Sequence record: MN850603.1
DNA length: 64,000 nt
From: Escherichia phage pinkbiff
Reading direction: 5' to 3' (one strand)
How positions within the stretch are numbered: position 1 is the first letter of the stretch; every line of letters starts with the position of its first letter. This document shows, in pieces, positions 7,911-44,477 of this stretch. The notes beneath the pieces were generated by a model. It saw only the letters and a program-made list of their open reading frames with translations, was not told where the DNA came from and made no database searches. The position numbers and the translations under genes were made by a program.

Positions 7911-15908
<7,998 letters not shown>

Positions 15909-25563: not shown

Positions 25564-27180
25564 TCAACGTCTAAGCCCCTCATATGGATTTCCTCTCACT
25601 AAGTCTGTGTGAGCACCCATTGATGGTGGCTTGAATAATTTAACTTCGTTAAGACTGTTGAAAGCATCACTGGTAGCATCCACTTGGTCATCTTTAGTTT
25701 TGCCATCACCACAAAAGCCTTCAAGCTCTTGAAAGTAAGCTTCATTCCAACTACCTCTCAAGACTTTTACAAGTCCAGCTTCAGAAGCAGCAGAAAATCC
25801 CGCAAAGCGGGTAACTTTATCTTTATTTGTTGGTTTAGCTCTTGCACGATAGCCTTTCTCGGAAAGTTTCCTGATGAGTGATGTTGCGTAGGATTTACCA
25901 GCAGCGCCTGGGTCTTGAGGGATAAAAATACCAGTTCGCTTACCGTCACTTTCAGCAGTCAAATTAATTTGTGTTTCGACTCCAGAGGGTCTATCTCTAA
26001 ATCTTACTACATCAATGATATAATAGCAACCGTCTTTTTTAGATTTACCCATCTTAACACCTGCTGTCCAGTCTGGATTAGGGTTAACCTCAGATGGTAA
26101 AGTTGCTGCTAAGTCCCATGCTCTAACATCAAATACATCTTCTGGGAGTGAATCAACAATCTCACACCATTGTCTTTGCCAATAGTTTGAACCTTCTGCA
26201 CGAGCCTTCCAGTTACCGAAACGAAGTCTTGCAACGTTTACAGGTGTGTTGTTTTCAAGCTTACCGCGATACTTTGGCTCTAAGAAGTCAAGAATTGGGT
26301 TATCATCAATCGTACCAGAGATGAAGGTGTATGTTTGAGGAATCTCAAGAGGGAACATTTCAAGAATCTTGTCTCTCTCCCAATCAGAAACCATCACACC
26401 ATCATTCATTACATACCAACGAATACGACCACACTTTTCAGGGTCTGGGTAACCTTCTTCATCTAAGAATGGTTCTACCCAATCGTAAATAAAGTGGTCT
26501 CTATCTGGGTTCATGGAAATCTTCATGTATGAATCACCTTCAGCACCAGAACGTAGACGAGTTTGTAGGTATGAAATCTGTGAAGCAGAGAAGTGTGTAC
26601 CTTCGTCAAAGTAAATAGCTGAGTATTCAATACCCTGATGACCTTCAGCGTGCTTTTCAAGTTCTAGGTAGGTAAACTTGATAGTTGCCCCAGAAGGGAA
26701 TGTGATAGTCATTTTCTGCTCGTGAGGAATCCCACCAAACTTACCAAATAGTTTCTTTGCAGCAGGCCATAAACCACCTTGTAACTGTGTTGTATTTCGA
26801 CGGAAATATACAGCATTATAGTTAGGGTCTTCAATAAATCTTAAAGAGTCCATTAACAATGCGGCAGTTTTACCAGCACCAGCAGCACCACCATAGAGAA
26901 CCAAGTCAGCATTAGTATTTAAAAAGACCTCTTGAGAACCCGGCTGAGGGGCTACATAGTTCTTATCAGTCATCAATTTGAAGATAAGTCTAACTTGGTC
27001 TGGTGTGTATCTTAATAAAGTCAGAATTTGAGTTGGAAGGAATTTAGAGGGGTCTTTACCGAATGATTTGATAATTTCTTTTACTTCATCAGAAAGCCCC
27101 AACTCTCCAGCTAGGACTTTCCTAACATCTTCCACTCGCTTCTGCTTAACAGCATTTAAGTCCATTAAGCACCTCCGCAA
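25564..27180 (-). CDS. terminase large subunit
   Basis: 538 aa; Walker A-like LYGGAAGAGKTAAL near N-terminus, acidic nuclease-type C-terminal region. Confidence 0.85.
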   Translation of the reverse strand: MRRCLMDLNAVKQKRVEDVRKVLAGELGLSDEVKEIIKSFGKDPSKFLPTQILTLLRYTPDQVRLIFKLMTDKNYVAPQPGSQEVFLNTNADLVLYGGAAGAGKTAALLMDSLRFIEDPNYNAVYFRRNTTQLQGGLWPAAKKLFGKFGGIPHEQKMTITFPSGATIKFTYLELEKHAEGHQGIEYSAIYFDEGTHFSASQISYLQTRLRSGAEGDSYMKISMNPDRDHFIYDWVEPFLDEEGYPDPEKCGRIRWYVMNDGVMVSDWERDKILEMFPLEIPQTYTFISGTIDDNPILDFLEPKYRGKLENNTPVNVARLRFGNWKARAEGSNYWQRQWCEIVDSLPEDVFDVRAWDLAATLPSEVNPNPDWTAGVKMGKSKKDGCYYIIDVVRFRDRPSGVETQINLTAESDGKRTGIFIPQDPGAAGKSYATSLIRKLSEKGYRARAKPTNKDKVTRFAGFSAASEAGLVKVLRGSWNEAYFQELEGFCGDGKTKDDQVDATSDAFNSLNEVKLFKPPSMGAHTDLVRGNPYEGLRR

Positions 27181-27186
27181 ATAGAA

Positions 27187-27462
27187 TTATTCAGAGTCTG
27201 TAGCAGTCTCTTCTTTCTTAACTTCGAACTTTGCATCAACAGCATCAAGAAGTGCATCCATAGATGCTTCTTTAATATCAATACCTGTTGCTACAGACAG
27301 TCTATCTGCAATTGCCATGATAGTATTCTGCATAAACTCTAACTTCTTGTTAGCTTCATAAAGTTCTTTATAAACGTTCTCGCTCATTATGTTTTCTCCA
27401 AATAATAAATCTCGTTTCCCCTTAAAAAAGACGGCACGGAGACCGTCAAGGAGAAACCACAA
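27187..27462 (-). CDS. hypothetical small protein
   Basis: 91 aa upstream of terminase. Confidence 0.4.
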   Translation of the reverse strand: MWFLLDGLRAVFFKGKRDLLFGENIMSENVYKELYEANKKLEFMQNTIMAIADRLSVATGIDIKEASMDALLDAVDAKFEVKKEETATDSE

Positions 27463-41971: not shown

Positions 41972-42520
41972 ATGGAAAAAGATAACTTAAAAGGTGTTGA
42001 AGATAACTACCTAGTACTTGATTGGAATGATATTCGGGAAGCACTATCTGAAGAAAGCCTTGACCTGCTAGAGCAACTTATCTTCTCAGTACGCCATACC
42101 AGAGGTATTGTAAACGGTAAAGAGCCACTTGAAGGAATCTTTGTAGAGAAGTCTTATCCGTTCTATGAAGATACTTTGCAGAAAGTTAAAATGTACTTTA
42201 AACAGAAGAACCGTAAAGTGGTCACTATGGTATCTCTTGGTGGACAGAGTATGTCTATTATGGAAGATATCAACCCTAAGAGACCAAGTAAGGGTGTATG
42301 TATAAAAATCACAGGTCATGAAGAGTATGTCTCAGCAAGTGATTTTAGTGTGTTCTGTAATGGTTCTGCTGTCTTTAAGGGGTTTCACTATGAAATCCGA
42401 GTGTACCCAATCAAGGGAGATGATATCATGATGCAGATATTTGATAACAACAATGGATTCACTCATTTTTATCAGACAACCAAGTCATCATTAAAAACAG
42501 TTTTAGAAAACCTGATTTAA
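41972..42520 (+). CDS. hypothetical protein
   Basis: ORF opens at 41915 overlapping upstream gene; ATG at 41972 (MEKDNLK) preferred; start uncertain. Confidence 0.4.
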   Translation: MEKDNLKGVEDNYLVLDWNDIREALSEESLDLLEQLIFSVRHTRGIVNGKEPLEGIFVEKSYPFYEDTLQKVKMYFKQKNRKVVTMVSLGGQSMSIMEDINPKRPSKGVCIKITGHEEYVSASDFSVFCNGSAVFKGFHYEIRVYPIKGDDIMMQIFDNNNGFTHFYQTTKSSLKTVLENLI

Positions 42521-42528
42521 AATATCTT

Positions 42529-42558
42529 AAGAGCCTCCTTAATTGGGGGCTTTTTATT
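42529..42558 (+). terminator. rho-independent terminator closing plus-strand block
   Basis: hairpin AGCCTCC/GGGGGCT followed by TTTTTATT. Confidence 0.5.
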
Positions 42559-42559
42559 G

Positions 42560-44140
42560 AGTAAAATTTACGAAATTTATATTTTTATAAAATTTTATCG
42601 GTTGTCCCAACCTCTGGGTCACCATCATATGTGAATAAAATATCTATCCTTCTTAACAGCCTTCTTAATCTTACTCTCTATGTAGTTATATAGTACTATA
42701 TAGTATCTTAGTAACTATCTAGTGGTCTTAATAGCCCTCTGTATAACCCTTCTAACAAGCCCTCTAACAAGCCTTCTAAACACTCTTCTAACAAGCCTTC
42801 TTAACAACCTATACAATCACCTTAATCATCCATCTACACCCTCTTAGAAGCTCCTATACACCTCTTAATCTCTAGGTTACCTATGTTACCCTCTATAGGT
42901 GTTCACTAGGTATTACTAAGCCTCTATATAGACTGTTTTAACAAACTTAACAGGAATATCTTTACAGACCTTATCTCACAAGGTCTAACACGGTACTAAC
43001 AAGGTATCTTATAAGCCTGTTTCTACCTGTATTTTTAAAATACTGTCTAGGTAATTATTCAGAATTTTAAAATTTTTATAAAATAGAGCTATCAAGTCAT
43101 TTTTTAGGGTCTTTGAAGGAACTGAAAAATATCTGTCTAGGATGTATATCTGCTTGGTAGCCCTTAACAGCTCCCTTACAAGTACTTTGCAGAATTTTAA
43201 AATATCATTAACAGTTTCTTAACAGTTCTCACATCTTCTTAACAACTCTTCAAAGGTCTTAACAGATTCTTAACAGAACTAACAAGGGCTTAACAGTTTT
43301 CTAGGGATTGGTAACAATACCAATTAACAAGTACTGAATAGGCTTTACAGAATCTTAACAGATGACTAACAAGAGCTAACAAGTTAATTTTAAAGAGTTA
43401 TTTTGTTAAGATAATTAACAAGTTCCTAACAAGTGTTTAATCTTTTTAACAAGCTATTAACATGGTCACTACTCTTTTCTTATCGTTCCCTTTCCTTTCT
43501 TAGTGACTTCTTAAACATACCTCTTAAAAGCTCTTAAAAGCTCTTTATAGGCTCTTTTAAGTCCCTCCCTAGTATTTACCCCTCAACTGTATGGATAGCT
43601 CTTTATAGGGCTTTACAGGAGCTTTTAAGGCTATGCCAAAGGTTCTTACAAGGTTTTTACGTGGTCTTAACAGAGATTTAACAAGGTGCTAACAAGAATA
43701 ACTATGTAGGGTTTGTTAAGAAAATGTTAAAAAAATGTTAAGGGGGCTAGCATTTACGTAACTTTTAAGCTACTTCAAAGTAACTTTATAACCCCTATAA
43801 CATGCTTTTTAATAGCTATCAAGGGGTTTGTTTAATCATTCACAAGATACTAGCCAGCCTATAAGCTTTCACCCTTATAAGATTCTTTTAAGGCTCTGGG
43901 AAGCTTTATAAAGGGCTTTTAAGGGTGAGGTAATGCAATCCCTTAAGTTAGGTTAATAAGGCCGTTATAGGGCTTTATAGAGCGTTTAAATGGTTGCCCT
44001 TCCCTTTCGGGTTATGGGCTTATATTTAAGTTGATTTGATAAGAGGTTATAGAGTAGACTATAGAGTTATTGCTTTTTAAGGTCTAGTAAGATTCTGGAA
44101 AGGAAAGGGAAAGGGTTTGTATAAGGATTCGATAGACGTA
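42560..44140. repeat. noncoding region with dense short repeats (TTAACAG / TAACAAG and CTTTATAG / CTTTTAAG families)
   Basis: no ORF of 60 aa or more in any frame across about 1.6 kb; more than 25 copies of (C)TTAACAG or (C)TAACAAG, many spaced 10-20 bp apart in 43200-43460; flanked by convergent terminators. Confidence 0.6.
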
Positions 44141-44142
44141 AA

Positions 44143-44215
44143 AAAGCCCCTATGAGATAGATTCTATCGAATCCATTTTGAGTAGGGGCTGTTCAGGTAT
44201 CTGGGGCTATTTAGC
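44143..44215 (-). terminator. rho-independent terminator closing minus-strand small-gene array
   Basis: minus-strand hairpin AGCCCCTA..TAGGGGCT followed by U6. Confidence 0.5.
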
Positions 44216-44228
44216 CCCGTTGCGTCGA

Positions 44229-44477
44229 TTAGTTGTAACCTTGTTTGCTGTAGTACAGGGAGACAATCAAATCACCCCAGTAATGATAGTGATGCTCATC
44301 GTTTATGGCCTCTTTTACGGCATCTTTCCAGAAGTCATCAATAGGGTTATAGTCTGGGATAACTTGCTTGATAACTGTCTTCACTAAGGAAAAGCATTCA
44401 TCAGTTCCGCCGATATCAAATTTAACGTCCAGAGTATAACAGCCATAAGCATTTACAGTAGCGCGGATAGTTGCCAT
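44229..44477 (-). CDS. hypothetical small protein (cassette-array gene)
   Basis: 82 aa; ATG follows conserved leader with AGGAGA Shine-Dalgarno. Confidence 0.5.
   Translation of the reverse strand: MATIRATVNAYGCYTLDVKFDIGGTDECFSLVKTVIKQVIPDYNPIDDFWKDAVKEAINDEHHYHYWGDLIVSLYYSKQGYN

Follow-up and report, generated by a model that had tools for sequence, protein, structure and literature searches.

Helically phased motif copies at the terminal-repeat junction of Escherichia phage pinkbiff and related Felix O1-like phages

Short phased elements lying beside the site where terminase cuts are known from the cosB R sites of lambda, the pacL and pacR boxes of SPP1 and the pac hexamers of P1. These cosB and pac elements are bound by the small terminase, giving a bent or wrapped complex, and they number three to seven over 100-200 bp, in cos or headful systems. 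We describe here a gene-free region of Escherichia phage pinkbiff (sequence record MN850603.1), located at positions 42521-44228 of a stretch of 64,000 nucleotides that was analysed as a whole (the window). Compared with the lambda, SPP1 and P1 sites, its elements are more numerous (over 30, spread across 1.2 kb), and the setting is one of fixed ends and an exact repeat. We know of no packaging signal or recognition protein identified in the Felix O1-like phages, the group to which pinkbiff belongs.

The closest analogue of the pinkbiff junction is the concatemer junction of T7, which contains the packaging signals pacB and pacC, with pacB being recognised by the small terminase (PMC9860248). 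The terminal repeat of T7 spans 160 bp, and the first 340 nt of its record have 11 copies of CTAAAG with none on the other strand, spaced at 13 or 26 bp in a block just inside the repeat; the function of these T7 short repeats is itself unsettled. What both phages share is a short exact repeat together with an array of a short motif (6-8 bp) on one strand, in and beside that repeat. However, the pinkbiff motif is unrelated in sequence to that of T7 (CCTAAAG), and its repeat is almost four times longer, holds most of the copies and has them phased at 10.5 bp. The pinkbiff genes at both sides are transcribed toward the ends, whereas T7 reads inward from the early promoters of its left end, and T7 has a small terminase, while none was recognised in our scans of pinkbiff. 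The result extends the T7-type junction and introduces no new principle.

Among closer phages, direct terminal repeats (DTRs) of homologous sequence are found in UAB_Phi87, Pr103Blw, Ro111lw, NBEco005 and SeKF_63. The terminal repeat of Felix O1-like phages is already published and deposited, the earlier studies reporting its existence and its length. For the arrays, their phasing, the inverted boundary copies and termini, and the conserved flanks, we found no prior description in the searchable literature, which is incomplete, and the motif array appears to be undescribed so far.

The terminal repeat and its gene-free flanks

The region can be divided into three parts, given in window coordinates, none of them assigned to a strand:

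43156-43747: homologue of the DTR, 592 bp, present here as a single copy, with boundaries taken from the ends of related records
42521-43155: left unique non-coding flank, which in the virion lies just inside the right-hand copy of the repeat and which aligns end to end across three genera
43748-44228: right unique non-coding flank, which in the virion lies just inside the left-hand copy of the repeat, with CTTWWWAG copies at 43762-43973

The clearest evidence for the central part comes from the ends of deposited genomes. In the records of Ro111lw and NBEco005, 613 and 651 bp, respectively, are 100% identical at both ends, and in both cases the ends map to 43156 and 43747. The SeKF_63 record has the repeat segment at its positions 1-613 and a second copy elsewhere, the records of pEP20 and EcSzw_1 open at 43156, and those of GE_vB_7A, MET-P1-301 and ECP2307 stop near 43747. 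Independent records from different laboratories start or stop, i.e., at the identical nucleotide, as expected of fixed ends. A DTR of 608 bp was established in UAB_Phi87 by Bal31 digestion and run-off sequencing, and a heat test for cohesive ends was negative (PMC4837284); the segment of this phage homologous to 43156-43747 has 614 bp. In Pr103Blw a repeat of 581 bp was found by PhageTerm (PMC8303462), and short terminal repeats had been deduced from genome size in the paper on the Felix O1 genome (PMC3185647). Overall, the repeat ranges from 569 to 651 bp in Felix O1-like relatives. Taken together, the record ends at two constant points and the published repeats make 43156-43747, by homology, almost certainly a direct terminal repeat, and the exact repeats at the ends of the Ro111lw and NBEco005 records and of that of Erwinia phage M7 (see below) place it with the T7 type. 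The single copy in the pinkbiff record is explained by a permuted source assembly in which the repeat collapsed. A headful pac site was also considered and rejected, since the relatives have fixed ends and an exact repeat and not permuted chromosomes. Judged by the ends of its relatives, the whole region is the concatemer junction, i.e., the full 1.7 kb between two genome units, made up of the 592-bp repeat and unique gene-free flanks.

An earlier reading of the window, made from its letters alone (the sequence-only reading), had listed a packaging or terminal-repeat site among several options for the region. This option fits the central 592 bp, which are homologous end to end to the DTR of the relatives, and it has to be narrowed to this middle third, both flanks being unique sequence. 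The same reading had described ca. 1.6 kb without any open reading frame (ORF) of 60 aa or more as exceptional in this genome, and had placed convergent terminators at both sides; both statements were borne out. The gap, 1.7 kb long, extends from the stop of a + strand gene at 42520 to that of a - strand gene at 44229, and the largest ORF inside has 41 aa. The longest stretch of the window without ORFs of at least 60 aa is 42521-44177 (1657 bp), the runner-up (1610 bp) being the tRNA cluster. Both neighbouring gene blocks converge on the gap and terminate into it, by means of the following hairpins:

42527-42555, + strand: intrinsic terminator, with a hairpin at 42535-42549 and then a T-run, closing the rightward gene block that ends at 42520
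44141-44217, - strand: intrinsic terminator, with two hairpins and then U6 (-36.2 kcal/mol, z = -5.9), closing the leftward block that ends at 44229

The left terminator is annotated at the equivalent place in the record of Moogle, and the right one in those of Tribble and Moogle. A conserved set of short ORFs, which the sequence-only reading had named among the outcomes that would speak against it, was absent from the 11-genome alignment described below, where no ORF was conserved in position or strand and the longest ones differed in both.

The source phage is a Felix O1-like myophage (Felixounavirus), a genus with which its cluster of 26 tRNAs, rIIA, NAMPT and the myophage structural genes are in keeping. 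The region is matched by 256 phage records, nearly all of them Felix O1-like, at 73-95% identity, and the Felix O1 genome has the same gene-free gap at 12305-13928. Among the ca. 260 matching records, one carries the label of a Staphylococcus phage; for a group of enterobacterial phages this is implausible, and it is probably a case of mislabelling or contamination.

Counts, phasing and conservation of the motif

The motif copies are distributed over the repeat and the left flank as follows:

43164-43464, + strand: main array, 17 same-strand copies of the TCTTAACA(A/G)G family with 10.5-bp phasing
43666-43696, + strand: three further forward copies at 11-bp spacing, the copy number varying by 11- or 22-bp units among relatives
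43713-43747, - strand: three inverted copies at 11-bp spacing, abutting the right boundary of the repeat
42746-42810, + strand: five tandem 12-bp units CC(C/T)TCTAACAAG (family D3), spaced 12, 12, 12 and 12

The exact words TTAACAG and TAACAAG occur 23 times on the + strand of 42560-44140 and 0 times on its - strand; the other 62.4 kb of the window contain 15 (+) and 20 (-), about background. In first-order Markov simulations of the region (n = 1000) we obtained 0.52 ± 0.71 exact copies with a maximum of 4, so that the observed enrichment is ca. 44-fold. The core TAACA is found 30 times on the + strand and 5 times on the - strand, and all 35 aligned cores give the consensus TCTTAACA(A/G)G, i.e., a motif of 8-9 bp. 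Counted per 600-bp stretch on a single strand, there are 20-21 TAACA cores here versus at most 5 anywhere else in the window. The left flank (42521-43155) holds 10 TAACA cores, nine on the + strand and one on the - strand.

From core to core, the 17 cores in 43165-43458 are separated by 44, 11, 20, 20, 11, 9, 11, 21, 13, 31, 11, 10, 39, 11, 20 and 11 bp. A periodicity statistic has its maximum at exactly 10.5 bp (R = 0.48, compared to 0.19 ± 0.08 for random placement), and 0.4% of 1000 trials reach this R. The copies are one or two helical turns apart, on the same face of the DNA. The sequence-only reading had announced more than 25 copies, many of them 10-11 or 20 bp apart. The spacings, mostly 9-11, 20-21 or 31 bp, agree with this description, and so does the excess over simulated sequence; the number is right for the degenerate motif (30 TAACA on the + strand) and slightly too high for the exact 7-mers, of which there are 23.

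We have aligned the region in 11 genomes belonging to three genera (Felixounavirus, Suspvirus and Mooglevirus). Between genera it aligns end to end with 73-78% identity, and the neighbouring genes do so only over ca. one third of their length. Within the repeat, the columns of the TAACA core are 95.0% conserved versus 82.5% for the other columns, a difference that no circular shift of the mask (n = 591) reached. Of the core columns of the main array, 83% are invariant, versus 46% of its other columns. Only 12 of the 70 indels in the alignment are multiples of three, and those of at least 5 nt (n = 33) cluster at 10-13 and 21-26 nt, equivalent to one or two repeat units or helical turns. The idea of a region of low G+C content within a high-G+C Suspvirus genome was dropped, the flanks in SUSP2 having also ca. 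37-38% G+C.

A more distant comparison was provided by Erwinia phage M7, which belongs to Kolesnikvirus, the fourth genus of the subfamily. By BLAST, the match to the region is limited to 85 bp at 75% identity. Nevertheless, the M7 record has a 444-bp terminal repeat at both ends, 100% identical, containing 20 TAACA cores and again the TCTTAACA consensus. The M7 copies include a run of spacings of 11, 20, 20, 20, 9, 11 and 11 bp, to be compared with 11, 20, 20, 11, 9 and 11 in pinkbiff, and the layout is the same, with forward copies beside the left boundary and inverted copies beside the right one. Also in the equivalent unique flank of M7 there are copies of TCTTAACA at 12-13-bp spacing, like the units at 42746-42810 of pinkbiff; this flank spacing in both phages resembles the 13 bp of T7. 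Since M7 shares the motif, the spacings and the orientations, the plan is conserved across the whole subfamily Ounavirinae. A scan of IMG/VR for wider relatives with the neighbouring 82-aa protein retrieved only close ones (82-98% identity). The motif is non-random, phased and conserved, and the conservation of the cores, the phase-keeping indels and the array of M7 indicate that it is under selection.

The boundaries of the repeat are built with the same motif. The boundary words, GGTAGCCCTTAA at the left and TGTTAAGGGGGC followed across the boundary by TAGC at the right, are identical in nine further relatives from three genera, with the exception of one substitution in Sf19. The last inverted copy, TGTTAAGGGGGC, at the right boundary corresponds, in inverted orientation, to GGTAGCCCTTAACA of the left one. 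When the virion ends are read inward 5' to 3', one starts with GGTAGCCCTTAACAG and the other with GCCCCCTTAACATTT, so that both have the form G..GCCC(CC)TTAACA; the first motif copy is met 8 bp inside one end and 6 bp inside the other, pointing inward in both cases. Read in this way, the chromosome carries short, imperfect inverted termini that are built on the motif. One further element lies immediately outside:

43141-43155, no strand: near-invariant block GATGTATATCTGCTT, immediately outside the left boundary of the repeat, a candidate determinant of the cleavage site

Of the 11 aligned genomes, 9 have GATGTATATCTGCTT without any change, and SUSP2 and ESh22 are each one base off. Its 9-mer core, TGTATATCT, is 4 nt away from the left boundary of pinkbiff, on the outer side, and 2 nt from the equivalent boundary of M7 (L013 445-456), likewise outside, in DNA that is otherwise unalignable between the two phages. 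TGTATATCT may be part of the cleavage signal.

Possible roles of the arrays

The sequence-only reading had seen in the helically phased repeats arrays for protein binding, an idea that we consider probable and that draws support from the 10.5-bp period, the bias to one strand, conservation specific to the motif and indels that keep the phase. The best overall explanation, which we favour with some reserve, is a concatemer junction with phased sites for a packaging-recognition protein that would position the cuts of terminase. That the arrays serve packaging recognition specifically is a more tentative proposal, about which we are in some doubt.

By analogy with T7, the mechanism would run as follows. 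A phage-encoded DNA-binding protein, most likely a small-terminase-like recognition component, would bind cooperatively to the phased sites and build a nucleoprotein complex on the junction. The complex would position the large terminase, encoded at 25564-27180 (PHROG 979), for cuts at the two boundary copies. The two boundary copies face in opposite directions, so that a single type of complex might nick the top strand at one and the bottom strand at the other, 592 bp apart. Nicks of opposite strands are just what strand-displacement synthesis needs in order to duplicate the repeat. In the most far-reaching version, the arrays would form, throughout the Ounavirinae, a platform of telomere-like layout for a core protein, with the inverted boundary copies and TGTATATCT directing opposite-strand nicks ca. 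590 bp apart, a proposal that we regard as speculative and, on balance, unlikely.

The large terminase of UAB_Phi87 groups in the Felix O1-like cluster of terminal-repeat phages (PMC4837284). Directly upstream of the pinkbiff large terminase gene, in the place expected for a small terminase, there is an ORF at 27187-27462 (- strand) that belongs to PHROG 4397, of unknown function, and that has 66 aa from an internal ATG or 91 aa from TTG. A homology search for a captured version of the packaging site in satellites or plasmids gave 0 matches in 5,426 E. coli genomes and 72,556 plasmids.

Several points weigh against the packaging explanation. The ends of the pinkbiff chromosome are deduced from relatives. 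The repeat measured in UAB_Phi87 falls 6 bp below the homologous segment, so that the exact positions of the cuts are uncertain by a few nucleotides, and the inverted boundary elements lie ca. 4 nt off the ends as mapped. Neither among ten flanking proteins nor among the ORFs beside the large terminase did scans with PHROG and Pfam reveal a small terminase or DNA-binding candidate, all functions returned being unknown. In T7, most end-proximal loci tolerate single insertions, those near the left repeat's inner edge being the exception (PMC11482910), and therefore even the best analogue is no proof that such arrays are required. Finally, the data presented here do not separate packaging from other roles associated with the ends.

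One such role could be the capping of the ends against host exonucleases after injection, the pairing or recombination of repeats into concatemers, or the organisation, at the portal, of the DNA that is packaged last and ejected first. The inward-pointing copies so close to both ends would suit it, as would the location of arrays inside the repeat, which gives every virion chromosome a set at either end. There was also no recognisable RecBCD inhibitor among the flanking proteins scanned, and the relative Bas63 has been reported to be without one (PMC11482910). However, arrays are found also in the unique flanks (42654-42997), at a distance of 160-500 bp from the end, so that recognition of the junction fits better than end capping; we hold a different end function to be rather unlikely. 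Less probable still is that the arrays are the iterons of a phage replication origin, where an initiator would bind and melt an adjacent AT-rich patch, the overlap with the terminal repeat being secondary. Like iteron origins (lambda ori, plasmid oriV), pinkbiff has many direct repeats, helically phased on a single face of the DNA and adjoining AT-rich sequence (85-90% AT at 42551-42600, 43051-43090 and 43381-43420), and the coding strand and the GC skew both switch at the region. But with 8-9 bp the unit is much shorter than typical iterons (17-22 bp), its copies are many more (over 30 compared to 3-8), and it is placed at the chromosome ends, with inverted copies exactly at the edge of the repeat, i.e., the layout follows the ends. 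A search of the region found one weak (relaxed) DnaA-like box, no IHF consensus site and no GATC. No initiator-like gene was found either, the ten flanking proteins having no known family or domain in PHROG and Pfam. The switch in skew is uninformative, because skew tracks the direction of transcription throughout the window. Neither the size of the unit nor the search for DnaA-box and IHF clusters nor the nearby genes lend support to the origin iterons that the sequence-only reading had included among its options.

We consider it very improbable that the region is a long non-coding transcript, a source of small peptides or a control region in which TTAACA acts as a -35-like element. TTAACA coincides with TTGACA at 5 of 6 positions, several promoter-like sites with 9/12 matches are built on the motif, and tiny ORFs are annotated here in some records. 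Yet the promoter-like sites number 15, compared with 9.7 ± 2.8 in shuffled sequence, none exceeds 9/12 hexamer matches, the motif is at background frequency upstream of other genes in the window, and the region is where both neighbouring gene blocks terminate. With a permissive threshold, Rfam yielded no family (sub-threshold matches covered the left terminator only), and the folding of the repeat, with z = -1.3 and -1.0 on the two strands, is no better than that of shuffles. The longest ORFs shift in place and strand between genomes, and the small share of indels in multiples of three is equally at odds with peptides. The non-coding transcript suggested by the sequence-only reading finds, with ordinary folding, no Rfam match and no promoter-like site above 9/12, no backing. 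The least credible alternative is that slippage during replication of non-coding DNA produced the repeats and that they have no function. Copy number does shift in 11- and 22-bp units between relatives, as slippage would produce, but the cores are selectively conserved relative to the spacers, motif, spacing and orientation persist in the genus of M7 despite almost no remaining sequence similarity, and the alignment between genera covers the full 1.7 kb but only parts of the neighbouring genes. A partition (parS-like) site, also listed by the sequence-only reading, was discarded: the scans of the ten flanking proteins found no ParA/ParB-type domains, and the phage is virulent with a linear genome.

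Other repeats, side observations and significance

A second family of short repeats, CTCTTAAAAGCTC and CTTTATAGGGCTTT, generalised as CTTWWWAG, numbers 13 copies where 1.6 are expected; at 43523-43554 and 43601-43622 its members follow each other every 10-11 bp. With it, two more features complete the description of the repeat:

43521-43632, no strand: CTTWWWAG runs inside the repeat, one or two bases off CTTAACAG, at 10-11-bp spacing
43304-43326, no strand: 23-bp unit GGGATTGGTAACAATACCAATT, with 7-bp inverted arms around ACAA

The 23-bp unit GGGATTGGTAACAATACCAATT is present in some relatives and missing from others (counterparts at L008 1381-1398, L006 363-380 and L017 1376-1393). It occupies three different positions of the array among relatives, after ca. 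43303, 43381 or 43408 in window coordinates, as if it moved by recombination between repeats. There is also a perfect 12-nt inverted repeat, CCCTTTCCTTTC and GAAAGGAAAGGG, at 43488-43499 and 44098-44109, formed by a pyrimidine-rich tract in the terminal repeat and a purine-rich tract in the right flank ca. 600 bp apart, which is marginal with respect to chance. An exact 14-nt direct repeat, CAGAATTTTAAAAT (family D20), is found at 43060-43073 and 43190-43203, at either side of the left boundary of the repeat, 96 nt outside and 34 nt inside it.

Over the whole window of 64 kb we found 0 GATC sites, compared with 177 ± 11.5 in dinucleotide-preserving shuffles, and this total avoidance points to strong selection against Dam or host systems that target GATC. 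Directly upstream of the tRNA cluster, at 32948-34363 (- strand), there is a 471-aa "RNA-binding protein" (PHROG 850). Its counterpart in Bas63 has been described as Ro60-like, with the suggestion that some of the annotated "tRNAs" may be Y-RNA-like (PMC11482910). Literature searches for a transcriptome of Felix O1 and for Bas63 insertions in the junction region turned up nothing specific.

Felix O1-like phages are widely used for typing of Salmonella and E. coli, in biocontrol and in therapy. For annotators, the practical consequence is that these genomes should be opened at the repeat, where assemblies collapse ca. 600 bp. The phased array with its boundary elements offers a concrete candidate cis-element for plasmid packaging, synthetic genome rebooting, transducing particles and containment designs such as exist for T7, and the array can serve as bait for the protein that recognises the DNA. 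If the proposals of a subfamily-wide platform and of two opposite nicks were true, they would amount to an undescribed route to a direct terminal repeat in a myophage without a recognisable small terminase.

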